The notes under the pieces: model-generated
The model's database searches: none
Seen by the model: the letters and a program-made list of their open reading frames with translations, nothing else
What the model was told of the DNA's origin: nothing
Part shown: piece after piece, positions 2,553 through 37,610 of the stretch
Layout: each line of letters starts with the position of its first letter
Position numbering within the stretch: the first letter of the stretch is position 1
Program-made: the position numbers and the translations under genes
Source of the DNA: Streptococcaceae bacterium
GTDB lineage: Bacteria > Bacillota > Bacilli > Lactobacillales > Streptococcaceae
Assembly: GCA_031253335.1 (NCBI GenBank)
Contig: JAIRWF010000027.1
Location: 97,077-161,076, forward strand
Length of the DNA stretch: 64,000 nt
Direction of reading: 5' to 3'

Positions 2553-2954
2553 ATGCAAAGCATACTCATCGACATACTTTACGGCGCGCTGATTCTTCTC
2601 GTGTTGGCACTTGCCATTCTCGTCGTCAACCTGATTCGCACAACTGGTCATATCAATAAAGCAACCAAGCTCGTTGCAAGCGACGTGGATGTACTTTTAC
2701 ATCAAGCAGACACGCTCATGAGCAAAGTCAACACGCTTGTTGAAGATGTCAATGGCAAAGTGGCCACGATTGATCCGCTCTTTACCGCGGTTGCAGACCT
2801 TTCTGAGTCCGTGACGAAGATTAACAAAACGGGTAACGACTTTGTCTCACGCTTCTCAAAGAAAAAAGCACGCCATCTCAAACAAAAAAGTATCATTAAA
2901 ATTGGCCGCGCAGCGAATTTCTTCAAACGCGGTGACAAATACGAAGAACAATAA
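2553..2954 (+). CDS. DUF948/YtxG-like membrane protein
   Basis: N-terminal TM, coiled coil, DVNGKVATIDPLFTAVADLSESV; conserved position after lgt. Confidence 0.85.
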   Translation: MQSILIDILYGALILLVLALAILVVNLIRTTGHINKATKLVASDVDVLLHQADTLMSKVNTLVEDVNGKVATIDPLFTAVADLSESVTKINKTGNDFVSRFSKKKARHLKQKSIIKIGRAANFFKRGDKYEEQ

Positions 2955-2966
2955 AGGAGGCCTTCC

Positions 2967-3422
2967 ATGGCTAAAAAATCACACTTTCTCTTAGGTGCCG
3001 CAGTTGGTGCCGTTGCAGCACTCTTCCTTGCCCCTAAAAAAGGCAGCGAGTTCCAGGAAGATGCGAAAAAAGCCTATAGCGATTTTAAAGAAAATCCGCA
3101 AGAGTTTGCAAAAGCACGACTTGCAGATGCCAAAGATTTTTCAGTTGAAAAATTCAATGACGTTAAAGGAAAATTTGACTCTGGCGAATATTCTGCGGAT
3201 AAAGCGCGCGACTATCTCCTAGAAAAACGAGACCAGATTCGCGAACGTGTTGAGTCTGGCGACCTATCTGCTGACAATGTCAAAGACTTTTTCAATAAAA
3301 CAAAAGATAGCTTAGTGAGTCGTTTTCAAACAACAAGCGACAAAGAAGCCTCAGAACAGGCGAGTGACCTAGATGAAAACTACAGCTGGACAGACAGCGA
3401 AGACAAAAAAGACGACTGGTAA
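2967..3422 (+). CDS. YtxH domain general stress protein
   Basis: FLLGAAVGAVAALFLAPKKG motif; SD AAAGGAGG. Confidence 0.85.
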   Translation: MAKKSHFLLGAAVGAVAALFLAPKKGSEFQEDAKKAYSDFKENPQEFAKARLADAKDFSVEKFNDVKGKFDSGEYSADKARDYLLEKRDQIRERVESGDLSADNVKDFFNKTKDSLVSRFQTTSDKEASEQASDLDENYSWTDSEDKKDDW

Positions 3423-3531
3423 ACAACTATCCCCATCTGGGGATTTTTTCTTTCCCTCAAAGCAGATTTCTGCCAGCTTTCAGTAAAACTTGTTACAATA
3501 AAGCTATCACATGATAGAAAAGGATCTAGTT

Positions 3532-4965
3532 ATGACTCAACAAGCAAACTTTGGTGTGGTCGGGATGGCCGTCATGGGCAAGAATTTGGCGCTCAATGTC
3601 GAAAGCCGCGGCTACACTGTGGCGCTCTACAACCGCACGACGTCTAAGACCGAGGCGGTGATTTCAGAGCACCCAGATAAAAACTTTATTTTGACAAAAA
3701 CGCCTGAGGAATTTGTGGCGGCAATCGAAAAGCCTCGCCGCATTATGCTCATGGTACAAGCTGGCAAGGGCACGGACGCCACGATTCAGACCCTTTTGCC
3801 TTTGCTTGATAAGGGCGATATCCTCATTGACGGAGGCAACACGCACTTCCCAGATACGATGCGCCGTAACGCTGAGCTCGCAAACTCAGGCATTAACTTC
3901 ATCGGTACAGGCGTGTCTGGTGGTGAAAAAGGCGCACTCCTTGGTCCATCCATGATGCCTGGCGGGCAAAAAGAAGCTTACGATTTAGTGGCCCCTATTT
4001 TTGAGCAAATCGCAGGGAAAGCACCTCAAGACGGGAAGCCTTGCGTGACTTACATTGGACCGAACGGCGCGGGACATTATGTCAAGATGGTACACAACGG
4101 CATCGAGTACGGCGATATGCAGCTGATTGCGGAGTCTTATGACCTCTTGAAGCGCGTTCTTGGCCTCTCAAACGCTGAAATTCAGGCGACTTTTGAAGAA
4201 TGGAACAAGGGAGAGCTCGATAGCTACCTCATCGAAATTACCAAAGAAGTCCTCAAATGCCAGGACGACCTTGAAGGTGAGACAGGATATATTGTCGATA
4301 AGATTCTCGATGCGGCTGGAAACAAAGGTACAGGTAAGTGGACGAGCCAATCTGCGCTTGATTTGGGCGTGCCACTCCCACTCATCACAGAGTCCGTTTT
4401 TGCCCGTTATATCTCGGCTTACAAGGACGAGCGCGTGAAAGCAAGCGGCGTTTTGGCAGGTCCTACAGCGACTTTTGACGGCGACAAAGCTGAAATTATC
4501 GAAAAAATTCGCCAAGCGCTTTACTTCAGCAAAATCATGAGTTATGCGCAAGGGTTTGCACAGCTTCGCAAGGCCTCAAAGGACTTTGACTGGAATTTGC
4601 CTTATGCGGACATTGCAAGCATCTGGCGTGCGGGCTGCATTATTAGGGCGCAGTTCTTGCAAAAGATCACGGATGCCTTTGATAAAAATGCGGAGCTTGA
4701 AAATTTGCTCTTGGACGACTACTTTGTCGGCGTGACGGCGAAATATCAAGAAGCAGTGCGTGAAGTGGTGGCCCTTGCAGTCAAGACCGGCACACCTGCG
4801 CCAACCTTTAGCTCTGCGATTGCCTATTACGACAGCTATCGGAGTGCCAATTTGCCTGCAAACTTGATCCAAGCGCAACGCGATTACTTCGGCGCGCACA
4901 CCTACGAGCGTGAGGATAAAGCACGAGGTGAGATGTATCATTATGACTGGTACACGCAAGAATAA
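3532..4965 (+). CDS. gnd: NADP-dependent 6-phosphogluconate dehydrogenase
   Basis: [47 protein letters not shown]; ATG 3532 after GAAAAGGA. Confidence 0.98.
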
Positions 4966-22748: not shown

Positions 22749-25700
22749 ATGGCAACTGAACACACTGCTGGCATGCATGTTAGCAATTCAAAGACACGGG
22801 AGCGCTATTTAGCGCTGCATGTTGGCGAAGAGACATCCACCCAGAAGACGACACACTACAGAACTTGGAAGGCTGGTAAAACCTGGCTTTACGGTGCAGC
22901 GACCTTCACGATTGTGGCGGGGGCTGGGCAAGCTACCGCAGTCAACGCGACGACGAATCTCGTACACGATGGTTTTGAGTGGGCTGAAGCCAATCTGGCT
23001 GTTAAAAATGTCTATGCCGACGTTATCACATCAAGCACCGCTTCATCAAGTGCTGATTCAACTTCGTCAACTCCTCAATCGCAGGCCTCAACGCAATCAA
23101 CAACGCCTGTCGCATCATCAATAACACCTGTTACCTCCTCTAGTACGACATCGCTAGCCTCTGAGACACCTGCTTCGAGTACAGCTCCTGTTACAAAGAC
23201 ATTAGCTGCAGATACTGATTCAAGTTCTTCCACAACAAGTTCAAGCTCATCTGCTGAGGCATCGTCTCAGTCAGCTTCTACTACAAGCGCTTCCTCTACG
23301 TCAAGCACGACAAGCTCATCAGCAACCTCAAGCTTGACGACGCCTTCAACGGCGGATTCTTTGAATGTCGTTGCAAGCTCGCTCTATAGCAGTGCCTTGG
23401 CACAGAGCGAAGCAGCAGCCAATGTGATTCAAATTGTCAATAATTTGGCATCTTCCGCCAATGTTGCAGCCACCTCAATTGCTTCGATGACAGATGTGGC
23501 AAGTCAAGCAGCAGCTCTATCGAGCTTTGCGGGTGCGCAATCTACCTACATCAATACCGCCTCAAGCAATATGATAGTGGCGATTTCAAACTATCAAGCA
23601 GCTCTTGATGCTTATAATAGCTTCTTATCTGCCAATAGCATGGCGACAACTGGCGGTAGCAACTCTCTTGTTGCAACGTCAATGGATGCATCTAGCTATA
23701 TGGCAGCAGTGAGCTCTTATAGTAGCGCTGTCCAGAGCTATGTGGCATCGGCACAGTCCTTGATTGCCTCAAACCAAGCCTGGATCGCTGCTCAGAATGC
23801 GGCCTCAAGCGCTTTAGCTGTTGTGAATTCTGATATTGCAGCTACTAAGTCGGCTGCAAGTCTTGTGAATAGCGCACTGAGTAATGAAGCAGCAGTGGCT
23901 AATAACGCACCTGTCATTGACTCGAACTCAGTTGACGCATTTGGGGCGCCAAAAGATCCATCTGCTTTTGCGGCGTCGATGTCTGCTGCCTGGGCAGCTT
24001 ATAACTCTGCCGTTTCTTCAGCAGCTATCCCAGCAAGTAGTGCGCTTGCAGCTTATTTGAGCTCTGAGGCTCAGTTTGAAATCGATGCCTCAACCTTTAA
24101 CTCGATTTATGCTACACAGCCTTCGGCTTTTGCGACTTATTCTGAAGTGGCTATCAGCTCGATTGCACAATCTTTCGCGACTGAAACGTCAACAGCTGAT
24201 TCTACAATGTCTAGCATTGCAAGTGCTGGCTCACAAGCGCTGGATTCTGCAAGCTCTTATGGTTCAGCTTTTGCAAGTGCTGAGTCTCTCTACAAGGTTG
24301 CAAGCTCAGACGCGGCAGTCACAAGCTCTTACGTCGATCAGATCAAGGCCTTGGAGAGCTCTGCCGCGATTACAGCATCGTCCATTGCGGCCTTGCCTGC
24401 AGGTTCCGAGCAATCTTCTCTCATGGCAAGTTTCGCAGCAGCGACTGCAAGCTCACTTGCAGATTTGGAGTCTGCCTTTAGTGCAGCCGATAGTCAGTAT
24501 GAGGCAGATCGCACAAGTTATACCGACTATCTCAGCCAAGAAAATATCCAACCCACTCAGTCTGATGGCAATATTGGCGTGGACCAAAGCTCTATGGCAA
24601 GTTTCGCCTCTGGGGTCAACTCTTACATTAGCTATTTGAGTTCTGCGACGCAGGTCACAGAGTCTAACTCAGCCAATAGTTCAGCCTATGTGGCTGCTTC
24701 AAATGCTGCCTCTGCAGTCACCTCGGACAATGCAGTTCTTTCAAGTCTTGCAAGCCTCGTCAATTCAGCGATTGCTGCGCAGTCTTCTGCAGTCGCAGGG
24801 GATCCGACCAACGCCAGCCTTTATAGTCTGCAAAATAGCATCGCAGCTAGCGCTGCTTCATCGGCCCTTGCAGCTTATAGCTCTGCCGCAGATACCTACA
24901 ATACGGCGGTTGGCTCATACAATACGATTGTTTCAAGTGCGGGCAGCCTCTTATCAAGCTATGCGACGATTGATGCCTCCTCGGCTGCAAGTTCACTTGC
25001 CAGCTCATTGACGGCTGCAAGCTCTGTAGTCACTGCAAACTCGACCACAGCCAGTAGCTTTGCAAGTGCTACAGGGACAAGCCAATCTGAAAATAGCGTC
25101 GCAAGCTCCTACTATGTGACGGCAAGCACGGCTTCTAAGACAGCAAGCTCAGCGATTTCCTATGCGAATAGTCTCGTCGCAGCACTTAACTCAGAAGCAG
25201 CTGCTCTTTCAGGTGTCTCAGACGCCGCAAGCCTTTCTGCCTTCTCAAGTGCTGTCTCTCTTTACAATAGCTATGTGAATGGTGATTTGACCTCAGCAGT
25301 CACGGCCTATTCAAGTGCGCAATCGGACTATAATAGCTACTTGTCCGCAAATAGCTTGACGACGACGTCCACGAATAGCTCAGACGCTTCAACACCAACG
25401 CTTTCTGACTACCTTACAGCAGAAAACAGCTACTCGACAGCAGCTTCAAGCTATGTGGTAACTGCCAATAGTGTGATTGCTGATAATAGCTCAAATGTGG
25501 TTGCCCAATCGAATGCCTCTGCTGCCCTTTCTGCAGTCAATTCAGCGAATACGGCACTTTCACAAGCGGCTAGCCTTGCAAACTCTGCAATTGCTGCGCA
25601 ATCGACAGCGGTCACAGGAGACGCAACCAATGCAAGCGCTTATAGCCTCGCAAATTCAATCGCTGCAAGTACAGCTGCCTCGGCCCTAGCAGCTTATAGC

Positions 25701-28700
25701 ACAGCAGCTGATACCTATAATTCTGCAGCAAGCTCTTACGATGCGATTGTCTCAAATAATCCCTCTGCTTTCTCAAGTGCTGGGTCGATTGACACGAGTT
25801 CCGTCGCATCATCTCTTGCGTCATCTCTTGCAAACGCTAGCTCGGTCGTGACTGCAAACTCTACGACCGCAAGCTCCTACGCAAGCTATGTCGGTAATAG
25901 CCAGTCTGAAAATTCAACGGCAAGCTCTTATTATGCGACGGCAAGCACTGCCTCAAAGACGGCAAGCTCAGCAATTTCCTATGCGAATAGCTTGGTTACA
26001 GCACTCAACTCAGAAGCTAGCGCATTATCAGGCATCTCAGATGCAGCCAGTCTCTCAGCCTTCTCAAACGCTGTCTCGGCCTACAATAGCTATGTGAATG
26101 GTGATTTGACTTCAGCTGTCACGGCCTACTCCAGTGCACAGTCAGACTACAATAGCTACCTGTCCGCAAATAGCTTAACGACGACATCTGCGAATAGTTC
26201 AGACGCCTCCACGCCGACGCTCTCAGACTATCTCACGGCGGAAAATAGTTACTCGACTGCTGCTTCAAGCTATGTTTCTACTGCAAATAGTATTTTGGCA
26301 GACAATAGCTCAAACATTGTTGCACAAAATAGCGCTTCAGCTGCACTTTCTGCGGTCAACTCAGCAAATACAGCACTTTCACAAGCCGCAAGCCTTGTCA
26401 ACTCAGCAATTAGCCAAGAAGCTTCACTCACGAGTGATACAGCGCTCCTGCAGACGACCGCTCAATGGGAAAATTACAATAAGCAAGTTTCGCTAGCTGC
26501 AAGCGTCGCTAATTCGTATTTAGTACAATACGCAAGCTCTGAAGCAACATATTCTGCTGCTGCAAGCTCATACAATGCGATTGTCTCGGACAATCCAAGC
26601 GCCTTTAGCTCTTATAGCACGGTTGATACAGACTCTGTCGCAAGCTCCATCGCTGCAAGCTCCGCTGCTGCAAGTACGGTTGTTTCACAAAATAGTGTTG
26701 CTGCGAGCACGGCCGCAAGCACCGCAGCAAGCCAAAACTCTGAAAATGCGTCTGCTGCAAGTCTTTACAGCTCAGCGGTTGCTGCATCACAAGCGGCAAG
26801 TTCAGAAATCTCGACAGCAAACAGCATGGTTGCAGCCCTCAACAAGTCCGCTGCTGCACTCTCAGGCATTTCTGAGACGAGCTCTCAAGCCTCAGCTTTG
26901 TCAGCCTATTCAGATGCTGTCGCAAGTTATTTAACAGAAGTGGATGGCAACTTGTCATCGGCTGTTTCAAGCTATGCGACAGCCCTTTCTGCCTACAGCG
27001 ACTACGTCTCTGCCAATAGCTTATCGACAACGTCGCTCAATAGTTCTGACGCGACGAGCTCAACCTTTGCAAGCTACGCAAGTCTTGCAAGTTCTTATAG
27101 TTCAGCAGTATCAGCCTATGAAGCCTCTGCCACAGCGACGATTTCAAGTAATAGCTCAAATACCGCTGCGCAATCTTCGGCAAGCTCTGCTTTGTCTGCA
27201 TTGTCTTCAGCAAATGCTGCTTTATCAAGTGCGGCAAGCTCACTCAATTCAGCAATCGCACAAGAAGCAAGCCTTACAAGTCTTGGCTCAGGCGATAATA
27301 GTGGCTGGACGCAAGCCGACTGGAACAACTATCAAAAGCAAGTCTCTCTTGCTGCAAGTACAGCAGCAGTGTTGCTTTCATCCTACGAGACAGCACAGAC
27401 AGCTTATAATGCGACAGCATCAAACTTTGATGACGTTTTATCCAGCAACCCAGCGGCCTTCTCATCAAGCTCTAGCGTGGATCTTACTAGTGTGGCGACG
27501 AGCTTTGCAAGTGAAAACGCCTCCGCACAGTCTGCAATTTCAGGAAATAGCTCTCTAGCCGCCTCAGCTCTCGCCTCAGCAACGGTAACTATCACCAATA
27601 ACGGTAGTAACAATGCGGCACAGACCCAAGCGTCTCAAGCGAAGGCTGCACTCTCGATTGCAAATACAGCGCTTTCCAACGCTGCAGATAATCTAAACTC
27701 TGCGATTGCTTCTGAAGCAAGCCTGACAGCACTTGGCACGTCAGATAATGCCGGCTGGACACAAACCGACTGGAATAACTACGATAAACAAGTCTCGCAA
27801 GCTGCAAGCATGGCGACTGCTGCCTTAAATAGCTACGAAGCAGCTCAAGCAAGCTACACGACGGCAGCTTCAAGCTTTAATGCAGTCTTATCAAGTAATC
27901 CAGCAGCCTTTAGCTCAAGCTCGAGCGTGGATCTCTCAAGCGTTGCTTCAAGCTTTGCTACAGAAAACGCCTCCGCGCAATCTGCAATCACGACGAACAG
28001 CACTGCAGCAAGTTCAGCTCTTTCATCTGCAACGACGACGATCAGCAGCAATAATTCAATGGCCGCTGCGCAAAGTAGTGCAAGTGTTGCTTCAGCCGCT
28101 GTGGTCACGGCAAATACAGCCTTATCAAACGCAGCAAGTGCTTTGAATGATGCGATTGCAAGCGAAGCAAGCCTCACAAGTCTCAATTCATCTGCAACAT
28201 CTGGCTGGACACAAGCTGATTGGAATAACTATCAAAAACAAGTCTCACAAGCTGCAAGCTTGGCGGCAAAAGCATTGACAAGTTATGAAGCAGCGCAGAC
28301 GAGTTATTCTTCAGCCGCTTCAAGCTTCAATGCGATTCTCTCAGCGAATCCATCCGCCTTTAGCGCAAGCTCGAACGTGGATCTCTCAAGCGTTGCCACA
28401 AGCTTCTCAAGCGAAAACGCTTCTGCGCAATCTGCAATCTCTGGCAACTCAAGTCTTGCAGCATCCGCTCTTGCTTCTGCAACGTCCACAATTGCAAGTA
28501 ATAGCTCAAATGCAGCCGCACAATCCTCTGCCTCTGTTGCAAGCTCTGCCGTGGCAAGTGATAACTCTGTCTTGGCAAGTCTTGCAACGAAGCTCAGCTC
28601 TGCGATGTCGCAAGAAGCCAGTCTTGCAAATACCACACCAAGTTATACGTCGGGCATGAACCTTTCAAGCTTTGCAAGCTCCCTTGCAGCTTATAGCACA

Positions 28701-31700
28701 GCGGTTTCAAATGCGGCAGCTTCGGCAGCTAATATTCTCGAGCAATATAACTCTGCGCAGTCTCAAGCAAGCTCAGATGCGGCTAGCTTTACCGCTATCA
28801 TCACAGCTAATCCATCGGCCTTTACAAGCTCTCAAGTGACGGATGCGACAAGCGTAGCAAATTCACTCACTAGCAACAGTATCACGGCAAGCTCTGCCAT
28901 TAGCTCAATCGCCACTCTCGTTTCGAATACTGTCGCAAGTGGGAACTCGATTGTCTCCTTAAATAGCACAGCAAGTTCATACTACCTTGCAGCGTCTCAA
29001 GCTGGCGCGATTGATTCAACGGCAGCTTCCTCACTTAACTCTGTCGTCTCGTCGGCAAACACAGTCATGTCTTCTATTGCTGCGATGCCAAATAGTACCG
29101 TCTCACAAGCAGCCGCACAATCTGCTGCTATCACAAGCCTTTCAGCTGCAGTTTCTCAAGCGCTCAATATGGACCTGACGACTTTGTCCTCTGCAAATGC
29201 AGCTTATCAAAGCGCAGTCTCAAGCTACAACAGCTACCTTTCTGCGAATAACTTGACGACTTCAGGTGGGACGAATACGACACCAAGCTCCGCTTTGACG
29301 CCTACGATCAGCGATTATCAGACCGACGTCAATAATTACCAGACTTCTTTATCTTCCCTTACCGTTGTCGCCAGCACAAATAGCTCAAATGCGGTTGCAA
29401 GCTCACTTGCCTCTTCAGCAGTAGCGAAAGTAGATGCAGACTCGACTGCAGTGAGCAATGCAGCTTCATCACTCAACTCCTTGATTGCGATTGAAGTTTC
29501 CCTCGCAAACGTCGCAAGTGCGAACTCTGCAAACTGGACACCAACAAGCTGGGCAAGCTATAACTCTGCTGTGTCAGCAGCTGCTAAATCAGCTAATTCT
29601 GCACTCAATGTCTATAATAATGCAACCAACAGCTACACGCAAGATGCATCAACCTACATGAGCCTCATGTCTGCCAATAGCTCAGCGTTTACAAGCTACA
29701 CGCAAATTTCTGTTGCAAGCTACGTGGCTGCCTTCTCAAGTGAAGCCACTGCCGCAAGTGATGCGATTGGCTCTATCTCAGATACCGCAAGTCAGACGGC
29801 TGCAAGTAACACGACTATCTATAGCCAGAATTCTACTGCAAGCTCTTATTATGTCGCAGCAAGCAACGCGCAAGTCACTGCAAGTAGTGTCGTTGCTGCG
29901 ATGAATAATGAGATGTCAAGCCTCAACTCGACATTATCAAGTATCGCTGCGCTGCCTAACAGCACCGCTGCAAGTGCTGCAGCCCAGTCAGCAGCCATGA
30001 GCTCGGCAGTCGCTGCCTATAATAACTATGTCAATGTCAACTCAGCGGCTTTGTATGGCGATGTCAACGCCTATCAGGCAGCTCTTGATAGCTACAATAG
30101 CTATCTTGCAGCTAATAGCCTTACGACGACAGCTAGCACAGCAACGTCGGCCCTTTCGACACCGACTAATATCTCAAGCTACGCAAATAGCCTGTCTAGC
30201 TATGCAAGTAGCCTGGCAAGTATTTCAGCGGTAACATCAACCAATGCAGTGCAACAGTCTGCCTACTCGACAGCATCTGCCCTTGGATCAACTGTCAATG
30301 CGGATAATTCGTCCTTGTCAACTGCGGCAAGTTCACTCAATTCACTGATTGCTTCTGAGGTCTCGATTGCGAATGCGACGCCATCTTCAGACGCAAGTGG
30401 TGTTATCACATCTGCCCAATGGTCAAGCTACAATACTGCTGTCTCGAATGCCGCAGCTTCAGCAGCGACCGCTCTTTCTGCCTACGAGAAGCTTCAATCC
30501 TCTTATCAGACTGCGCTTATCTCCTACAATAACTACATCCAGACGAACTCATCGGCTTTGTCTGCGACGAGCTATGGTCCAATTGGAAATAGCGACTCAG
30601 CAAGTGGCACACCAGATCTGGGTGCGGTGATTACAAGCTTTACGAATTATAATATCTCAGCAAGTGCGACGATTTCAACCGTTTCTAGTACGGCAAGTTC
30701 TGCTGCAGTCTATGGGACCTCTGTCACAGCGTCAAACGCAAGCATGTCGGCTGCATGGTCACTTGCTTCAAGCCTTGAGACACGTGTCAATAACGACAGC
30801 ACGGCCATTGCTACAGATGCGACAAACGTCAGCAATGCCCTCTCAGCTGAAGCCAGCTACGCAAATAGTAACACACCGAAATTCAGCTCAGGTGAAACGA
30901 CAGCTTCATACAGTGCGGCTTGGTCGGGCTATAACTCTGCCCTTTCTAGCTACGCAAGTCTCGCAAGTACAGCCATTAGCCAATACAACTCAGACGTAGC
31001 GGTCTTTAATACAGACGCCACAAGCTTTAACTCGGCTATTTCAGCTAATCCATCGGCCTTTAGCACTTATACGAGTGTTGCCAATCTCTCGAGCCTCGTT
31101 GCGAACCTTCAGTCAAGCGCCACAGCTGCCTTGTCTGTCGCAAACTCGATTGTGGCAGTCGGTACATCAACTGCAAGCCTTGCAAACACCAACGACTCTG
31201 GCTACGCGAAAGCAAGTAGCGATGCGCAGGTCGTTAATACTGACGCCACTGCCTTGTCAACCGCAGGATCAAGCGTAGTTTCAGCGGCCAATGCACTCTC
31301 GTCCGCCGTGGCAAACTCGGCCCTTCTCATCAGCAATTCCTCAGCCTATCAGGCAAGTATCACGTCGCTTGAGACAGCATTGTCGAGCCTTAATGGTGTT
31401 TACCAGTCCTCGCTTGCCACCTATAGCGCTGCTGTATCGCAGTTCAATAAAGACGCTTCGGCCTACTCTGCAACACCAAGCAATACGTCACTTGACATCA
31501 CAAGCTTCATGAACCAAGTGAATGCGGTTGTTTCAGGTGCATCTTACAATGCTTCGACGGTTGCCTCTGAACTGGCAATGGCTTCGCAAGTCGCCTCAGC
31601 CAACGGCTCAAATCAAGCAGCTTATAGCTCTGCAGTGGCCTCCTCTCAAGCACTCTCATCCACTGCAAGCCAACTTGCCACTGAAAAAACGGCCCTTAAT

Positions 31701-34700
31701 ACGGCCCTTGCTAGTCTTCAAGCAGCGATTAACAATACGTCAGATACCAACTACACCTCAGACGTCGCCACTGCTCAGAACGCTGTAACAACCGCTTATG
31801 CAAGCTATAACTCTGACTATATAGTCTATCTCTCAGAGGCGGCTGTCTATAACAAAGACATCTCGGCTTATGCCTCATCTGCAGGGACAACTGCCAATAC
31901 ACCGATTGACACCGTCACAGCAGGACTTTCCTCAACTGCCGCTAGCTCAACTGTGGCTTCCGCTCTCTCTGTTGCGGCACAAAATCTTGCCTCAATGGCT
32001 AGCTATGTGACGCTTTCAAGCCTTGCATCTACGGTCAATGCCGACTCGATCACGGTCAGTACGACATCAACAGCCTTTGGGTCAGCTCTCTCAAGCTATA
32101 CGACCCTCGCAAATAGTAAGGTTGCGGCTGAATCAACTGTCTATGCGAATGTTTCTAAGACCATGCAGTCGGATACAGCTAGTTACATGAATTCTGTTGT
32201 CTCATCTGCCGTGGCAGCAGGTGTATCCAATACTGCTTCACTGAATAGCCTCGCATGCTCAGCTGCTTCATCCTATGCAAGCTCCGTCCAAGCATCACTT
32301 TCTAGTGCGATAGCAGCTGTAGATAGTAGCTATGCTGCAAGTCTCACCGCTCTTTCAAGCGCACTTGCAGCTGCATCGACTGCTTATAGCTCCGCCACAA
32401 ATGCCTTCTTGAGTGATGCGGCAGCCTACTCGACAGCTTCCTCTCAGGCGATTAACGCCAAATGGCAAAATACTGCGGGCGGGATTGGCTCGGCGTCGCC
32501 AATGGATCTGGGGACTACAAGCTCCGGCATGACATCCTTGATGGCTTCTGCCAACTCGGCTGCAAGTCAGGCACTCTCGTCAGTCGCAAGCTTATCCTTA
32601 GCTAATAGTTCTGCAGACGCCGCTTACAATGCGATCCTCACACCGTATCTCTCAGCTGCGGCGAGCTATGCTGTCCTCTCAAATGCCCTCGTCACGCAAA
32701 ATACGGATGCATCGTCACTTGCGAGCCTTGTGAACGGCTTCCCATTGCCACAAGGGACAACTGGCTCTGCGACTTATTCTGCAACAGGATCTTTGGCCTC
32801 GGACTCGGCAGCTCAATCAATTGCAGCTTCCGCCTATTCAAGTGCTTATACAGCTATTTCCTCTGCATCTGCCTATCTCGCAAACGCATCCTCCAATGCT
32901 ATCTTGGTGGCCCTTCAGTCTGACGTAGGTGTGCCCCTTTCTTCCTTTTCAAGTACTACTTTTGGTTCAAGTGGCACAAGTGCTGCTGGCAAATTGGCTT
33001 ATTATGATATAGTAAGCATCATGGGGAACATGTCAACTCAGTCTGCTCTCACTATTTATAATAATATTTCTACGGCTGTTTTAAAATCAAGTTCAGCTTA
33101 TAGCGTTTTAAGTTCTGCCACGTCGGCACTTTCTAGTGCAAACTCGCAAGCTCTTGCAGACTGGGAAACGAGCTATATCTCATTGGCTAACAAAGTTCAA
33201 AGTGATATCTCGGTAGTCAATGCTGATTCAACCGCTTATTCGCAGGCTCTCTCTACCTATAGCTCGGTGGCGTTATCAAATGCCTATACACCTGGTGCAG
33301 CCAATATTCCAACGACCGCAACGAGTCCGATTTCAAATACCGCGCAGAGTCTTGTGAATACCTTGCAGTCTGGGATGTCGCAGACTGTCACGTCTAGTAA
33401 TCTTTCTAGTGGCACGGGAGTCGTTCCGTCTGATGTTTACAGTTATGCAGTCACCCTTCCTGCGTTAGATGGCTGGTCGGCAGTGAGTGTTGCAGCCGCA
33501 CCACTCAATTCATTGATGCAGTCTGAAAATGCTATCTTTAGCGAAATGACAAGCGTCGCTTCTCAATTGAGCTCCCTAGCTCAAGAGGCTATAAATGATC
33601 AGGCTACCTTGAAAACTGCATCATCTGGACAAGATACTGGAGCCGCTTTTGACTTAGCCCAAATTCCTTCTAGTATGGCAGATTTAAGCGCTTCACTATC
33701 TGCACTTGCGCTGCAAGCAAGTGAAGGGAAAGCTGCAGTCTCTCTAGCTGTTTCTTCCTTCTCTGTGGTTGCTTCCAGCTATGATGCTACGACTGCAGTA
33801 TCACTTGGTATTTTGCCGAAAGCGACTCAGATTGAACAGCTCGTTTCAAATAATGTCATTGCCTTAAATGGAGATTTGTGGATGTTTGGCGTGACTGGAC
33901 TTAATGGGCAGAATGGTAGTGGTACGAGCTGGCTAGCCGATTCACAAACTGGTGAATATACGCTCATCTCTAAAGCAATTGTCTCGATTGAAGATGGTTT
34001 TAATGGTTTGACTTCCTATACGAATGCGGCAAGTAGCATGACTAGTTTTGAGACCTATGAAGAGTGGAACGCTGCAAATGGCGGCACGTCAAGTGATGCT
34101 GCAGTCGGAGATAACCTTGGCTCATACTGGGATTACGTCTTTACCGCAGTGTACGGTAAAGCTTACGACTCTTCTGCTGATAGTAATACTGGCTGGATGC
34201 TTGATGGTAACTGGATGGTAAACACAGCATATGGTAGTGCCTATGCAAATGGTCAATGGGGAACGCCAACAGCAGCAAATACCTATCAAATCGCAGTTGC
34301 TCTAGGCATGCCAACTGGTCTTAATACAGTCACTCCGATGACACCACAAGCTGGCGTCTCAACGTCCTTTACGGCAACAAAGGTGACAACTAGTTCTGAG
34401 ACCACGACGCCTGCTCCTGCCCCAGGTCTTGTCAGTCTCACAAGCTATGCAACGTCTGGCGTAACACTCACTTTTGCGTCATCAGCAGCTGTCTCACTTA
34501 CGACGCCAAATGTCACAATGGGCTCGACCGTAGCACCTGGGCCTGGCTCTGAGCTTGCTTCAGCGGCCTTTAGCTCGATTGCAAGTATTTCTCTTGCGAC
34601 GCCTGTATCAGGCGCCGCGGTGAATAGTCCATCGGATTATGCAGTCTCTGTCGCAGGAAGCCAAGTCTCTGATGCGACGAGCGTGGCTTATACGCCAGCA

Positions 34701-37610
34701 TCATCATCCGCTTATAGCTCAGTGGCTGTCTCTGGTACGACCGTAGGTAGTGCGCTTGATGTCGATCTCAAGAGCCTGGCAAATAGCGCCGTGACATCTG
34801 CCACAGGTCCTAGCCTTGCTGTGACCTCTGTTGCACCAAACTCTGCTTCGAGCTACCTTGCGACAAGTGTCTCAGGTGCGACGGTAGATTCTGGTGAGAG
34901 TGCGGCCTACACCTGGACTGGCGTGACGAGTCTTGGCGACGTCAGTCTTACTAGCGTTGCGGTAAGCTCCGTCTATCCATTGGCACAGTCTAGCTTCACA
35001 TCCAGCCTTTCTGTTTCAACGACCTTCGTCTCAGATAGTATTGCTGTAGGCTATGCAGCTACCGCTAGCTCAACCTTCACGAGTGTCGGCTCAAGTCTCG
35101 CAACTGTGTCTGATGCTGTTTTGGGAAGCTATAGTGCATCAAGTGCCTCAAGCTTTAGCTCGGTCGGTTCTGTCACGGCGAGCGTTTCAAACGCTGTCGT
35201 CGGTGACTACAGTAATGCAGATAGTGCCGGCTTTGGCACGGTAGCAAGTAGCCTTGCCACTGTCTCAAACGCTGTCCTTGGTGCTTATACAAACATGGCA
35301 AGCTCCGCCTTTGGTGCTAGTGTCTCGATGACGAGCCTTATCGGCCAAAGCGTCTATCCAGCGTCGAGCCTGTCGATGGATAGCGTGACGGCCAGTACGG
35401 CGACTGTCTCAGACGCCGTTGGGGCCAGCTATACCACTGCCAGCTCTGAAGTCTTCTCGAGCGCCGATAGCATGAGTACCCTCTCTACGACGAGTGTCTA
35501 TCCACTTTCGAGCTCCAGCATGGATAGTGTCACAGGCCAAAGTGCGAGTGTGAGTGATGCTGTGACGACAAGCTACACCAACGCAAGTAGCGAAGTGTTT
35601 AGCTCAGCAGATAGTATGAGTACCTTGAGCGCGACAAGTGTCTATCCACTCTCTAGCTCAAGCGTTTCTAGCGCAGTCGGTCAGACGGCGACGGTCTCTA
35701 ACGCGAGTGATGCGAGTGTGGCGAGTCTCGCCCCATCTAGTCTTGACTCAGCCCCTGGCTTGCCTGATATTACTGTCAATGGCGTCTATGACCCTGTTGC
35801 CAATGCCTTTCCAACGGTCAGCGCAACGCCAACCACAGTTAGCTTTTCAGCGGCTGCAAGTTATAGTCCTGCTACACTGAGCACACTTGCCTCAGCGCCT
35901 TTGACAGATAGTCTCACGACGACGAGCGTTTATCCAGCAGGTTCCTATCTTGCGCCATGGATTGACATTGAAAAGACTTCAGGGTCTGGCGCAACCGCTG
36001 GAATCGGGATGAACTCAGATAGTTCAGACAATCTTGGCAATAGCACGACCTTGCAAGATGCCGATACGGAGAGCACGGCGGTTTATATCAAGTATGGCAA
36101 CTCAACGGCGATTAACTTCCTCGTCACAAATAACGGGAATGAAGACCTGACAGAAGTCATGGTAAGCGATAAACAGCTCACGGGGTCGCTTGCTGTTGGG
36201 ACGATTACGTGGACCTATAATGGCGAGACCTTGAGTATTAACAGCAATGGCTACTTGAGCTCGCCAAATGCAGATGAGAACGACGCCGATGGTAACTTTA
36301 TCTTCAAGATTGGGGATCAAATCGTGGGGACCGCGATTCTTCCTGCGGATACTGCTGCAGGTGTCTATGAAGGCGATGAAGCTTCTGTCACGGGGATTGG
36401 CGTTACTTCTCGTAAGCCAGTTTCTGATACGGATGACTGGTACGGGATTACCGAGACGCCAAGTATTGATATTGAAAAAGTCTCTGGCTCAGGCGTTGTT
36501 GCGGGGAACGGTAACTATAGTGATAGCGACAATAATCTTGGGAATACTTCGAGTCTCCAAGACGCAGACACGGAAAGCACGGCGGTTTATCGTCCTGAGG
36601 GTGATACTACGCAGATTACCTTCCTCATCACAAATAACGGCACCGAAGCCCTGACAAATGTTGCTGTGAGCGATGAACAACTCACTGGATCTGTCGAAGT
36701 TGGCACGATTACTTGGACTTATCAAGGTCAGACTTTGAGTCGTGATGCAAATGGTAACTTTATCCTCCCTGATGGGACGGAGCTTGTCTTGCCTGTCGAA
36801 GATGGGACAGGCATTGGCCAGATTATAGGTACGGCGACACTTCCAGCGCTTGTTGCAGGAGAAGTGGATGGTGACGAAGCAGCGGTTACTGCGGTTGGCG
36901 TGAAGTCAGGTATTTCAGTCGGCGATAACGATAAATGGTACGGCATTACCGAAAAACCAAGTATTGATATTGAAAAGACGAATGATGCCCCTGGCCTTGC
37001 GGGTAACGGGATGAATACCGATACGGCTAATAACGATGGTGTCAATGACCATGATACAGAGGCCACTGCGGATCAAGTCGCTAATGGCAAGAGTACGCAG
37101 ATTTATTTCCATATTACGAATAACGGGACAGAAAATCTGATTGATGTCAAGGCGAGCGACCAGCAGCTTGAAGGCGATAAGCAGGTTGGTCCAATCACGT
37201 GGACCTATGATGGCACCGTCCTCACGGAAGATAGCAATGGGTACTTCCTCTTGAATGGACAACCGTTTGTCTTCAAGGTGGGTGATAGTATTATTGGTAC
37301 GGCGACGCTTCCTGCTTTGACGCCTGGTGTGATGGTGGGCGATAAGGCGACCGTCACAGGTATCGGGCAGATTTCAGGCTTACCAGTATCCGATAGTGAT
37401 TCGTGGTATGGCGAGACGCCGAAAGTGCCTGCGAAAGCAGTGACACCAACACCTAGTCCTAAACCAACAAGCTCTAAACCGACGTCACGGACCCTTCCTC
37501 AGACGGGGGACGAAAATGGCGATGCTGCACTGCTTGCGGGTGAGGCCATGGCGATGGTTGCTATGGGCTTTGCGGTTAATAAGCGCAGACGGGCTAAGAA
37601 AAGTAAGTGA
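22749..37610 (+). CDS. Giant (~4950 aa) Ser/Ala-rich LPxTG cell-wall-anchored protein / adhesin
   Basis: KxYKxGKxW-type signal (HYRTWKAGKTWLY), long helical Ser/Ala/Tyr modules, Trp/Gly-rich central domain, S/T/V-rich segment, three Ig-like repeats, LPQTG + hydrophobic + basic tail. Confidence 0.93.
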   Translation: MATEHTAGMHVSNSKTRERYLALHVGEETSTQKTTHYRTWKAGKTWLYGAATFTIVAGAGQATAVNATTNLVHDGFEWAEANLAVKNVYADVITSSTASSSADSTSSTPQSQASTQSTTPVASSITPVTSSSTTSLASETPASSTAPVTKTLAADTDSSSSTTSSSSSAEASSQSASTTSASSTSSTTSSSATSSLTTPSTADSLNVVASSLYSSALAQSEAAANVIQIVNNLASSANVAATSIASMTDVASQAAALSSFAGAQSTYINTASSNMIVAISNYQAALDAYNSFLSANSMATTGGSNSLVATSMDASSYMAAVSSYSSAVQSYVASAQSLIASNQAWIAAQNAASSALAVVNSDIAATKSAASLVNSALSNEAAVANNAPVIDSNSVDAFGAPKDPSAFAASMSAAWAAYNSAVSSAAIPASSALAAYLSSEAQFEIDASTFNSIYATQPSAFATYSEVAISSIAQSFATETSTADSTMSSIASAGSQALDSASSYGSAFASAESLYKVASSDAAVTSSYVDQIKALESSAAITASSIAALPAGSEQSSLMASFAAATASSLADLESAFSAADSQYEADRTSYTDYLSQENIQPTQSDGNIGVDQSSMASFASGVNSYISYLSSATQVTESNSANSSAYVAASNAASAVTSDNAVLSSLASLVNSAIAAQSSAVAGDPTNASLYSLQNSIAASAASSALAAYSSAADTYNTAVGSYNTIVSSAGSLLSSYATIDASSAASSLASSLTAASSVVTANSTTASSFASATGTSQSENSVASSYYVTASTASKTASSAISYANSLVAALNSEAAALSGVSDAASLSAFSSAVSLYNSYVNGDLTSAVTAYSSAQSDYNSYLSANSLTTTSTNSSDASTPTLSDYLTAENSYSTAASSYVVTANSVIADNSSNVVAQSNASAALSAVNSANTALSQAASLANSAIAAQSTAVTGDATNASAYSLANSIAASTAASALAAYSTAADTYNSAASSYDAIVSNNPSAFSSAGSIDTSSVASSLASSLANASSVVTANSTTASSYASYVGNSQSENSTASSYYATASTASKTASSAISYANSLVTALNSEASALSGISDAASLSAFSNAVSAYNSYVNGDLTSAVTAYSSAQSDYNSYLSANSLTTTSANSSDASTPTLSDYLTAENSYSTAASSYVSTANSILADNSSNIVAQNSASAALSAVNSANTALSQAASLVNSAISQEASLTSDTALLQTTAQWENYNKQVSLAASVANSYLVQYASSEATYSAAASSYNAIVSDNPSAFSSYSTVDTDSVASSIAASSAAASTVVSQNSVAASTAASTAASQNSENASAASLYSSAVAASQAASSEISTANSMVAALNKSAAALSGISETSSQASALSAYSDAVASYLTEVDGNLSSAVSSYATALSAYSDYVSANSLSTTSLNSSDATSSTFASYASLASSYSSAVSAYEASATATISSNSSNTAAQSSASSALSALSSANAALSSAASSLNSAIAQEASLTSLGSGDNSGWTQADWNNYQKQVSLAASTAAVLLSSYETAQTAYNATASNFDDVLSSNPAAFSSSSSVDLTSVATSFASENASAQSAISGNSSLAASALASATVTITNNGSNNAAQTQASQAKAALSIANTALSNAADNLNSAIASEASLTALGTSDNAGWTQTDWNNYDKQVSQAASMATAALNSYEAAQASYTTAASSFNAVLSSNPAAFSSSSSVDLSSVASSFATENASAQSAITTNSTAASSALSSATTTISSNNSMAAAQSSASVASAAVVTANTALSNAASALNDAIASEASLTSLNSSATSGWTQADWNNYQKQVSQAASLAAKALTSYEAAQTSYSSAASSFNAILSANPSAFSASSNVDLSSVATSFSSENASAQSAISGNSSLAASALASATSTIASNSSNAAAQSSASVASSAVASDNSVLASLATKLSSAMSQEASLANTTPSYTSGMNLSSFASSLAAYSTAVSNAAASAANILEQYNSAQSQASSDAASFTAIITANPSAFTSSQVTDATSVANSLTSNSITASSAISSIATLVSNTVASGNSIVSLNSTASSYYLAASQAGAIDSTAASSLNSVVSSANTVMSSIAAMPNSTVSQAAAQSAAITSLSAAVSQALNMDLTTLSSANAAYQSAVSSYNSYLSANNLTTSGGTNTTPSSALTPTISDYQTDVNNYQTSLSSLTVVASTNSSNAVASSLASSAVAKVDADSTAVSNAASSLNSLIAIEVSLANVASANSANWTPTSWASYNSAVSAAAKSANSALNVYNNATNSYTQDASTYMSLMSANSSAFTSYTQISVASYVAAFSSEATAASDAIGSISDTASQTAASNTTIYSQNSTASSYYVAASNAQVTASSVVAAMNNEMSSLNSTLSSIAALPNSTAASAAAQSAAMSSAVAAYNNYVNVNSAALYGDVNAYQAALDSYNSYLAANSLTTTASTATSALSTPTNISSYANSLSSYASSLASISAVTSTNAVQQSAYSTASALGSTVNADNSSLSTAASSLNSLIASEVSIANATPSSDASGVITSAQWSSYNTAVSNAAASAATALSAYEKLQSSYQTALISYNNYIQTNSSALSATSYGPIGNSDSASGTPDLGAVITSFTNYNISASATISTVSSTASSAAVYGTSVTASNASMSAAWSLASSLETRVNNDSTAIATDATNVSNALSAEASYANSNTPKFSSGETTASYSAAWSGYNSALSSYASLASTAISQYNSDVAVFNTDATSFNSAISANPSAFSTYTSVANLSSLVANLQSSATAALSVANSIVAVGTSTASLANTNDSGYAKASSDAQVVNTDATALSTAGSSVVSAANALSSAVANSALLISNSSAYQASITSLETALSSLNGVYQSSLATYSAAVSQFNKDASAYSATPSNTSLDITSFMNQVNAVVSGASYNASTVASELAMASQVASANGSNQAAYSSAVASSQALSSTASQLATEKTALNTALASLQAAINNTSDTNYTSDVATAQNAVTTAYASYNSDYIVYLSEAAVYNKDISAYASSAGTTANTPIDTVTAGLSSTAASSTVASALSVAAQNLASMASYVTLSSLASTVNADSITVSTTSTAFGSALSSYTTLANSKVAAESTVYANVSKTMQSDTASYMNSVVSSAVAAGVSNTASLNSLACSAASSYASSVQASLSSAIAAVDSSYAASLTALSSALAAASTAYSSATNAFLSDAAAYSTASSQAINAKWQNTAGGIGSASPMDLGTTSSGMTSLMASANSAASQALSSVASLSLANSSADAAYNAILTPYLSAAASYAVLSNALVTQNTDASSLASLVNGFPLPQGTTGSATYSATGSLASDSAAQSIAASAYSSAYTAISSASAYLANASSNAILVALQSDVGVPLSSFSSTTFGSSGTSAAGKLAYYDIVSIMGNMSTQSALTIYNNISTAVLKSSSAYSVLSSATSALSSANSQALADWETSYISLANKVQSDISVVNADSTAYSQALSTYSSVALSNAYTPGAANIPTTATSPISNTAQSLVNTLQSGMSQTVTSSNLSSGTGVVPSDVYSYAVTLPALDGWSAVSVAAAPLNSLMQSENAIFSEMTSVASQLSSLAQEAINDQATLKTASSGQDTGAAFDLAQIPSSMADLSASLSALALQASEGKAAVSLAVSSFSVVASSYDATTAVSLGILPKATQIEQLVSNNVIALNGDLWMFGVTGLNGQNGSGTSWLADSQTGEYTLISKAIVSIEDGFNGLTSYTNAASSMTSFETYEEWNAANGGTSSDAAVGDNLGSYWDYVFTAVYGKAYDSSADSNTGWMLDGNWMVNTAYGSAYANGQWGTPTAANTYQIAVALGMPTGLNTVTPMTPQAGVSTSFTATKVTTSSETTTPAPAPGLVSLTSYATSGVTLTFASSAAVSLTTPNVTMGSTVAPGPGSELASAAFSSIASISLATPVSGAAVNSPSDYAVSVAGSQVSDATSVAYTPASSSAYSSVAVSGTTVGSALDVDLKSLANSAVTSATGPSLAVTSVAPNSASSYLATSVSGATVDSGESAAYTWTGVTSLGDVSLTSVAVSSVYPLAQSSFTSSLSVSTTFVSDSIAVGYAATASSTFTSVGSSLATVSDAVLGSYSASSASSFSSVGSVTASVSNAVVGDYSNADSAGFGTVASSLATVSNAVLGAYTNMASSAFGASVSMTSLIGQSVYPASSLSMDSVTASTATVSDAVGASYTTASSEVFSSADSMSTLSTTSVYPLSSSSMDSVTGQSASVSDAVTTSYTNASSEVFSSADSMSTLSATSVYPLSSSSVSSAVGQTATVSNASDASVASLAPSSLDSAPGLPDITVNGVYDPVANAFPTVSATPTTVSFSAAASYSPATLSTLASAPLTDSLTTTSVYPAGSYLAPWIDIEKTSGSGATAGIGMNSDSSDNLGNSTTLQDADTESTAVYIKYGNSTAINFLVTNNGNEDLTEVMVSDKQLTGSLAVGTITWTYNGETLSINSNGYLSSPNADENDADGNFIFKIGDQIVGTAILPADTAAGVYEGDEASVTGIGVTSRKPVSDTDDWYGITETPSIDIEKVSGSGVVAGNGNYSDSDNNLGNTSSLQDADTESTAVYRPEGDTTQITFLITNNGTEALTNVAVSDEQLTGSVEVGTITWTYQGQTLSRDANGNFILPDGTELVLPVEDGTGIGQIIGTATLPALVAGEVDGDEAAVTAVGVKSGISVGDNDKWYGITEKPSIDIEKTNDAPGLAGNGMNTDTANNDGVNDHDTEATADQVANGKSTQIYFHITNNGTENLIDVKASDQQLEGDKQVGPITWTYDGTVLTEDSNGYFLLNGQPFVFKVGDSIIGTATLPALTPGVMVGDKATVTGIGQISGLPVSDSDSWYGETPKVPAKAVTPTPSPKPTSSKPTSRTLPQTGDENGDAALLAGEAMAMVAMGFAVNKRRRAKKSK
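24690..28640 (+). repeat. Internal tandem repeats of the giant protein (819-bp and 450-bp periods)
   Basis: ATTTCCTATGCGAATAG at 25155 and 25974 (819 bp = 273 aa); GGCTGGAC (GWTQxDW) at 27303, 27753, 28203 (450 bp = 150 aa). Confidence 0.9.
35955..37420 (+). repeat. Three ~166-aa Ig-like repeats
   Basis: IDIEK at 35961, 36465, 36963; each has TNNG.E.L..V.VSD, ITWTY, VSD.D.WYG. Confidence 0.88.

Follow-up and report, generated by a model that had tools for sequence, protein, structure and literature searches.

What fold might be taken up by a protein in which a long series of large helical modules is followed, far along the same chain, by an equal number of short segments in the reverse order? 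The question is raised by one gene in a stretch of 64,000 nucleotides (contig JAIRWF010000027.1, positions 97,077 to 161,076 of the forward strand, assembly GCA_031253335.1, Streptococcaceae bacterium), which in its entirety is referred to here as the window and which derives from a termite-gut metagenome bin of 1.66 Mb that is 82% complete. The gene is a single uninterrupted open reading frame of 14.9 kb and encodes a protein of 4974 amino acids (aa), which we call P0001 and the features of which are collected in Table 1. P0001 reads as a sortase-anchored surface protein, because it has a signal peptide at its start and an LPQTG motif, a membrane helix and a basic tail at its end. Our leading reading, which we regard as slightly more likely than not, is that it forms a fold-back (hairpin) stalk resembling that of antigen I/II, in which the types of the repeated units would set the register.

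Two arrays in mirror order

The N-terminal-side (N-side) array consists of 18 helical modules, seven of type B (143–151 aa) and eleven of type A (130–165 aa), in the order B A B A B A B A B A A A A B A B A A. The B modules start at aa 227, 521, 802, 1075, 1353, 2093 and 2381 and the A modules at aa 374, 672, 945, 1218, 1500, 1650, 1800, 1950, 2243, 2530 and 2695. Self-BLAST, alignments and profile hidden Markov models (HMMs) agree on this segmentation. The module HMMs give 101–161 bits to modules of their own type and at most 6 bits to those of the other, against a maximum of about −2 bits for a block-shuffle null, and with them the module types and their order come out as claimed in a first-pass annotation that had been made from the letters alone. 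A search of PDB sequences with the A and B profiles gave no match at E<0.03.

The C-terminal-side (C-side) array is made up of 18 short segments, eleven of type a (26–29 aa, with the motif VS[DN]AV..SY) and seven of type b (~19 aa, with the motif SVYP), which follow one another as a a b a b a a a a b a b a b a b a b. Core HMMs trained on the clear units only (null 95% limits of 2.6–3.9 bits) find six a units (aa 4115, 4141, 4167, 4193, 4241 and 4289) and four b units (aa 4095, 4222, 4270 and 4318), all at 22–38 bits. A four-residue motif fits all seven b starts, the last five of which lie exactly 48 aa apart, and the hydrophobic pattern typical of each kind of segment, at positions 1, 5, 9, 17 and 20 of a and positions 2, 3, 10 and 13 of b, persists in the degenerate units; a2 keeps the a-type pattern if it is started one residue earlier, at aa 4020. 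The array is rich in serine (S 27, V 12, T 12, G 5, P 4%; 3.9% Pro), a composition poor for helices, and has no match in Pfam.

With the segmentation given by motif, phase and hydrophobic pattern, the C-side order is the exact reverse of the N-side order over 18 units. The reversal that had been read by hand in the first pass is in this way confirmed for all 18 units with a supported segmentation, HMM detection by itself reaching ten of the 18 on the C side. The outer ends of both arrays are fixed by other features, B1 coming straight after the Ser/Thr-rich region and b7 lying immediately before the first immunoglobulin-like (Ig-like) domain. The periods of 273, 150 and 48 aa that had been described in the same annotation are borne out by repeat spacings of 819, 450 and 144 nt in the DNA.

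The description of the mirror that depends least on segmentation uses the intervals between B and b anchors. Successive B modules are 294, 281, 273, 278, 740 and 288 aa apart and successive b segments 47, 127, 48, 48, 48 and 48 aa apart, so that after reversal the ratios of B to b intervals are 6.1, 5.9, 5.7, 5.8, 5.8 and 6.1, and the ratios of long to short intervals are nearly equal (N side 2.66, C side 2.65). Mapping the B intervals onto the b intervals in the forward direction fails. Under a random tandem-duplication null, the probability of this particular 18-unit pattern is about 1e-4, and we estimate the chance at ~1e-3 once freedom at the inner end and in orientation is allowed for. 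The similarity matrices of the B modules and the b segments also agree in the exact mirror register (r = 0.80), which is the best of the 14 cyclic registers in both orientations.

The two arrays lie ~12 kb apart in the gene, and a module is separated from its partner segment by at least 1326 aa. An origin of the mirror order in an inverted duplication or an antisense reading was considered and rejected: the DNA holds no inverted repeats, and there is no significant similarity between N-side and C-side DNA on either strand. A search of the other reading frames for a/b-like peptides found none.

Both arrays are, judging from their protein and DNA identities, old and under purifying selection on the protein sequence, since amino acid identity is high at saturated synonymous sites in the B modules and in the a/b segments alike. 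B3 and B4 share 90% protein identity and 79% DNA identity, while a8-b4 and a9-b5 share about 80% and 61–66%, respectively; over the repeat copies as a whole (window positions 25089–26336 and 35406–35693) the figures are 79–90% for amino acids and 61–79% for nucleotides, with synonymous differences saturated in both arrays (pS 0.6–0.86). The a/b segments are thus under constraint and not a free low-complexity spacer. Because of this saturation the duplications could not be dated, and the relative timing of the N-side and C-side expansions is unreadable from synonymous sites; the saturation itself could be a matter of simple age or of selection against recombination between repeats.

The proposed fold-back stalk

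A structure was predicted with AlphaFold2 for A3-B4-A4, using a six-row alignment of the A-B-A units of P0001 itself. The model is 90% helix, with a predicted local distance difference test score (pLDDT) of 67.5 and hence of moderate confidence, and its helices span residues 2–31, 39–80, 94–170, 176–217, 235–306, 314–358 and 371–407, those of 77 and 72 residues crossing the A-B and B-A junctions. The modules are therefore predicted, with moderate confidence, to be spectrin-like three-helix bundles that share long helices. Foldseek against the PDB and a shape search of the Atlas returned no significant match, only weak generic helical ones; the rows of highest probability in the PDB were plectin, spectrin and alpha-actinin rods (0.54–0.72, E about 0.5) and the best E-value was 0.32.

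In the fold-back reading, the N-side array would form a rod of such bundles, each module contributing ~6 nm and the 18 typed modules together ~110 nm, with a small globular domain rich in Trp and Gly at its outer end, the tip. From there, we infer, the chain would return as a mostly extended a/b strand in contact with the rod and antiparallel to it, one segment per module, and would end at three Ig-like domains and the LPQTG anchor at the wall. The two module types and the two segment types would together act as a register code, such that a rod of 2600 residues and a strand of 430 residues could pair in one way only.

The geometry is consistent with this arrangement. At ~42 residues a helix measures about 6.3 nm, in keeping with the length assigned to a module, and 26 residues of extended chain reach up to 8.6 nm; 48 residues laid over two modules would need to span about 2.6 Å each, so a return strand that is mostly extended can be accommodated, if with little slack. 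The length ratio expected when three helical passes are set against one extended pass is about 3 x 3.1/1.5 = 6.2, and 5.7–6.1 is observed. The original proposal that each bundle is completed by the returning strand is not supported, the AlphaFold2 bundles being self-contained, and as the predicted bundles look complete alone, the strand would more probably run over the outer face of the rod. What remains of the stalk proposed in the first pass is the unit-for-unit mirror, the constant ratio, the domain order, the geometry and the paralog counts described below; bundle completion and a clean congruence between A and a are not supported.

The region between the two arrays had been taken as a whole to be a central Trp/Gly-rich domain, and this holds for a globular part of ~180 aa (aa 3715–3894), the remainder being mostly further helical modules (aa 2848–3714). 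An HMM scan finds a weak 19th B-like module at aa 2836–2983, beyond which Ser/Ala-rich helical sequence that is neither type A nor type B continues to about aa 3714. The first ~280 aa of this inner region are homologous to the modules of a paralog, P0002 (BLASTP against aa 2838–3120: 27% identity, E 3e-7). The Trp/Gly-rich domain has no family match in Pfam, the PDB or the Atlas, an Atlas feature search included. On its C-terminal side, the stretch that leads into the a/b array contains one a-like hydrophobic pattern, at aa 3949, and possibly holds three to four more degenerate segments.

A search with the Ig-like base of P0001 revealed two small paralogs in the same genome, P0002 and P0003. 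P0002 (936 aa, contig C11) begins with the same kind of signal and a Ser/Thr-rich region, followed by two A-like helical modules with a period of 128 aa, a globular head, a linker of 58 residues with 17.5% Pro, a single Ig-like domain 58% identical to the third of P0001, and an LPHTG anchor. P0003 (576 aa, contig C20) has one module, a head like that of P0002, a shorter linker and LPQTG; the two are 77% identical across the head and 59% over the whole alignment, in which P0003 lacks exactly 126 residues relative to P0002, equivalent to one module. The linker motif F.NPT.PV occurs twice in P0002, 21 aa apart, and once in P0003, so that modules and motifs number 2:2 and 1:1, with a period ratio (128/21 = 6.1) as in P0001. 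In sequence these motifs show no relation to a or b. Both paralogs lack the typed A/B array as well as a/b segments, and the A/B and a/b arrays therefore occur together in P0001. On whether modules and segments are gained and lost together, the paralogs (2:2 and 1:1) thus give a positive answer, for three proteins of one genome only.

Beyond this genome, the tip and a/b region gave no match among 1.84 billion representative proteins, and a word-indexed search of a 5.8-billion-cluster collection with the tip and the B4-A5 region, at near and shorter lengths, also gave none. Among 40 relatives, 400 genomes of the family (345 of them from one genus) and 400 of the order, only the P0001 gene itself was found, and the tip of P0002, searched in the 40 relatives and the 400 family genomes, found only the two paralogs of this genome. 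Scans of genome and metagenome contig collections with four queries returned pattern matches and no relative. Two gut-metagenome runs from another study contain a ~95–99% identical gene in short contigs, and within those short contigs neither array shows a module-sized insertion or deletion. One allele from that study has a 12-nt deletion near 32947–32960, in the inner helical region, and in one contig 563 nt of the Ig-like repeats are missing (36480–37044, with 25 nt on the shorter side), a gap that is not a multiple of three and is probably an assembly artefact.

Taken further, the fold-back reading would make P0001 a new kind of hairpin fibril of more than 100 nm, in which at least 18 bundles are paired unit by unit with a thin typed return strand, a claim that we place a little short of probable. 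Within it, a small family specific to this lineage, with one, two and 18 or more pairs, would show the matched addition of pairs whose members lie up to 12 kb apart.

Alternatives to a hairpin

A number of results weigh against a hairpin. On the C side, eight of the 18 units fall short of HMM significance (a1, at aa 3994, is marginal and seven are undetected), so that with sequence similarity as the sole guide the objective part is the core b-aaaa-b-a-b-a-b. The B/b fit rests on seven units, among them a central block (B3-B5, b3-b5) that reads the same in either direction and a single outlier in each array (B2, b6). Between A and a, the exact mirror gives r = 0.35, compared with 0.63 for the mirror shifted by one and 0.70 for the forward order shifted by two; the correspondence claimed in the first pass, between the closest pairs of modules and the closest pairs of segments, thus holds for B and b and does not hold uniquely for A and a, and the mirrored congruence of module and segment trees is not clean. 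The youngest duplication is centred on B3/B4 on the N side, with halves of A either side, and on a8/a9 on the C side, with halves of b either side: a mirrored place, yet half a period off. In the a/b array (34665–35960) the hydrophobic period is 3.7 residues (power 2.9–3.9 against a 95% shuffle limit of 1.3), as in a helix, where a classic strand would show one of 2 residues; it could reflect contacts made once per rod heptad, or some helical character. AlphaFold2, run without an alignment on aa 3290–4489, which take in the tip and the whole return array, gave only coil, at a pLDDT of 30 that is too low to be informative. At the inner end, ~870 aa of helices face only ~100 aa on the C side, a ratio of 8.8, and the pairing scheme is therefore not cleanly continued to the tip. 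Spectrin-like bundles and the rods of Embp and Ebh are free-standing and have no fourth element (PMC7587433). In P0002 the linker repeat is short (shuffle p = 0.014), no relative is found outside this genome, and counts can be compared in only three proteins.

Several of these points would be met if the two arrays were independent, the modules forming a free-standing helical stalk, the a/b region a Ser-rich, possibly O-glycosylated extended spacer, and the mirror order and length ratio a coincidence to which the post-hoc segmentation of degenerate units had contributed. A three-helix rod can do without a partner, a giant Ser/Ala-rich protein of the same genome (described below) looks like a one-pass stalk, similarity between A and a is not best in the mirror register, and of the 18 C-side units the HMM objectively detects only ten, and these (b aaaa b a b a b) also fit the forward order at nine of ten positions. 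Very many windows have been scanned, so a 1e-3 coincidence can occur. This account has, however, to accommodate degenerate units that keep the exact 48-aa phase and the hydrophobic pattern, interval ratios constant at 5.7–6.1 with long-to-short ratios of 2.66 and 2.65, and a pattern whose probability under the duplication null is about 1e-4. A spacer would also sit uneasily with segments about 80% identical in amino acids at saturated synonymous sites, and coincidence with paralogs that carry modules and motifs at 2:2 and 1:1 and in the same ratio; a single pass would moreover put the sole globular domain in the middle of the molecule. We consider independent arrays rather unlikely.

A further alternative is that the a/b array folds on itself, as amphipathic helices or as a beta-solenoid with coils of 26 and 19 residues, or that it pairs in trans and bundles fibrils. 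The 3.7-residue period, well above its shuffle null, and the strong conservation of the a/b residues would suit such a fold, and no prediction excludes one (the model of aa 3290–4489 being at pLDDT 30), although that same AlphaFold2 run gave coil only, at very low confidence, and the composition, together with proline in b and in a10 and a11, is poor for helices. A fold of its own would leave the mirror order and the 6:1 ratio unexplained. For pairing in trans, molecules anchored by their C termini stand parallel, and rod and strand of neighbouring molecules would then not meet antiparallel in register. We regard this family of explanations as improbable.

Known rods and stalks, and the setting of the gene

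In antigen I/II proteins the A and P regions intertwine, lifting the V domain more than 50 nm above the Ig-like C domains and the LPXTG motif (PMC7732690). P0001 resembles these proteins (SpaP/P1, SspB, BspA) in its sequence of signal, N-terminal region, helical repeats, globular domain, shorter repeats, Ig-like domains and LPXTG, in its sortase anchoring, in having Ig-like domains to the number of two or three, and in repeat numbers that are matched on both sides. It differs from them in having no sequence relation: no AgI/II A, V, P or C Pfam family matches it, neither the Strep_SA_rep repeats of the A region nor the GbpC-like V region being found in Pfam at E<=0.01, and its Ig-like domains match no AgI/II C-domain family and resemble, below threshold, DUF7507/DUF11. 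The rod is predicted as three-helix bundles rather than a single long helix, and the return array is Ser/Val/Thr-rich with 3.9% Pro where the P region is proline-rich. There are at least 18 pairs at a ratio of ~6, in place of 3–4 pairs at a ratio of ~2, and two module types and two segment types stand in mirror order. Fold-back is established for antigen I/II, whereas for P0001 it is the order, the ratio and the paralogs that point to it indirectly. The likeness would accordingly lie in how the protein works and not in descent; the hairpin principle is already known from antigen I/II, and what appears new is the three-helix-bundle rod, the number of pairs and the mirrored typed register.

If P0001 does fold back, that principle would be widened from a helix and a polyproline strand to a modular bundle rod and a typed strand, and the protein would offer a natural example of register keeping in a very long two-stranded protein, together with the evolutionary question of how two arrays separated by 12 kb of the gene keep the same number and order of units and a matching length. 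It would also carry a warning for the annotation of fibrillar adhesins, in that a binding domain in mid-sequence may sit at the tip of the fibril. The small size of P0002 (936 aa) and P0003 (576 aa) makes the hairpin idea directly testable. A limited literature search found no paper on a mirrored two-letter module code or on a hairpin built on three-helix bundles, and we know of no surface protein with either. A partial analogy exists in the armadillo repeats of beta-catenin, along whose three-helix repeats the tails of cadherin and Tcf lie extended and antiparallel, meeting successive repeats in order; that pairing is intermolecular, cytoplasmic and superhelical, and has no typed one-to-one code.

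Embp and Ebh form rods of two alternating three-helix bundles joined by shared long helices (PMC7587433), and P0001 is similar in being a giant Gram-positive surface rod whose A and B modules are predicted (pLDDT 67.5) to share their junction helices. They differ in that P0001 has no FIVAR or GA match in Pfam and ~145 aa per bundle, compared with about 63 aa, and in that Embp and Ebh are one-pass rods without a second, mirrored array of short segments. Spectrin, plectin and alpha-actinin also consist of tandem three-helix bundles in which the last helix is continuous with the first of the next repeat, but these are eukaryotic cytoskeletal proteins with repeats of ~106 aa; they show no significant sequence or structure match to P0001, and the Pfam Spectrin profile does not match it. 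With the serine-rich repeat (SRR) glycoproteins exported by the accessory Sec system (Fap1, GspB, Srr), P0001 shares the KxYKxGKxW signal, a very high serine content and LPXTG. It lacks, in contrast, their dipeptide SRR regions and their layout of SRR1, binding region and SRR2, its body consisting of helical modules, and its gene is not beside accessory Sec/Gtf genes, a SecA2-like and a GtfA-like gene being on other contigs.

Table 1. Features of the P0001 gene, with positions in the window
Feature	Residues	Position	Strand	Basis or remark
Whole gene, P0001		22686..37610	+	single ORF and translation
KxYKxGKxW-type signal peptide	54–89	22845..22952	+	TIGR03715, PF19258
Ser/Thr-rich low-complexity N-terminal region	~110–226	23013..23363	+	composition, translation
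N-side array, 18 helical modules	227–2847	23364..31226	+	self-BLAST, alignments, HMM scan with shuffle null, AlphaFold2
Inner non-typed Ser/Ala-rich helical region, about 6 module lengths	2848–3714	31227..33827	+	
Trp/Gly-rich globular domain (~180 aa), candidate tip	3715–3894	33828..34367	+	
Inner C-side stretch, 8% Pro	3895–3993	34368..34664	+	tentative
C-side array, 18 short segments	3994–4425	34665..35960	+	motifs, core HMMs, hydrophobic pattern, 144-nt repeat
Three tandem Ig-like domains, period 166–168 aa	~4426–4912	35961..37421	+	sub-threshold PF24346, Atlas
LPQTG sortase motif, membrane helix and basic tail	LPQTG at 4937	37494..37607	+	PF00746

A scan of the whole of P0001 against Pfam (E<=0.01) found nothing beyond the LPXTG anchor and the KxYKxGKxW signal. 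The signal scores 24.9 bits with TIGR03715 (cut-off 18) and 18.3 bits with PF19258, and the anchor 24.6 bits with PF00746 (cut-off 20). The true start may be an ATG a few dozen codons 3' of the GTG, and the first 228 residues are dominated by serine, threonine and alanine (S23 T18 A14). The Ig-like domains are probably DUF7507/DUF11-like, to judge from scores of 22.8 and 24.6 bits with PF24346 for the first and second, which lie below the cut-off of 27, from Atlas feature matches to DUF11/DUF7507 clusters at 0.92, and from the presence of the IDIEK and WYG landmarks. The gene is flanked by housekeeping genes, with asd, dapA, rnj, comEA and comEC upstream and the atp operon (atpB-G) downstream.

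The same genome encodes a second giant LPXTG protein (contig C25:8717-18094 (+), locus L023), of 3125 aa with S 28% and A 24% and a KxYKxGKxW signal. It has a globular N-terminal domain (aa ~70–225) followed by one long Ser/Ala-rich region up to LPQTG, with no globular domain in the middle, no return array and no detectable homology to the A and B modules, and looks like an ordinary one-pass stalk by its layout. Unlike this protein, P0001 has no globular domain at its N terminus. In another genome of the genus (G002, contig C20:50939-52087 (-), locus L017), an LPXTG protein of 782 aa carries two Ig-like domains that are 51–55% identical to those of P0001, and an N-terminal part that is unrelated and not helical; the Ig-like base is accordingly a shared cassette.

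A second SecA of the size of SecA2 is encoded in the genome of P0001 (contig C2:3242-5488 (+)), in a frame of 796 aa that scores 890 bits with the secA2 model (cut-off 930), and a GtfA-like glycosyltransferase (contig C14:9190-10662 (+)) scores 426 bits (cut-off 575). An accessory Sec/glycosylation system is probably encoded on other contigs of the genome, and the KxYKxGKxW proteins could be exported and glycosylated by it.

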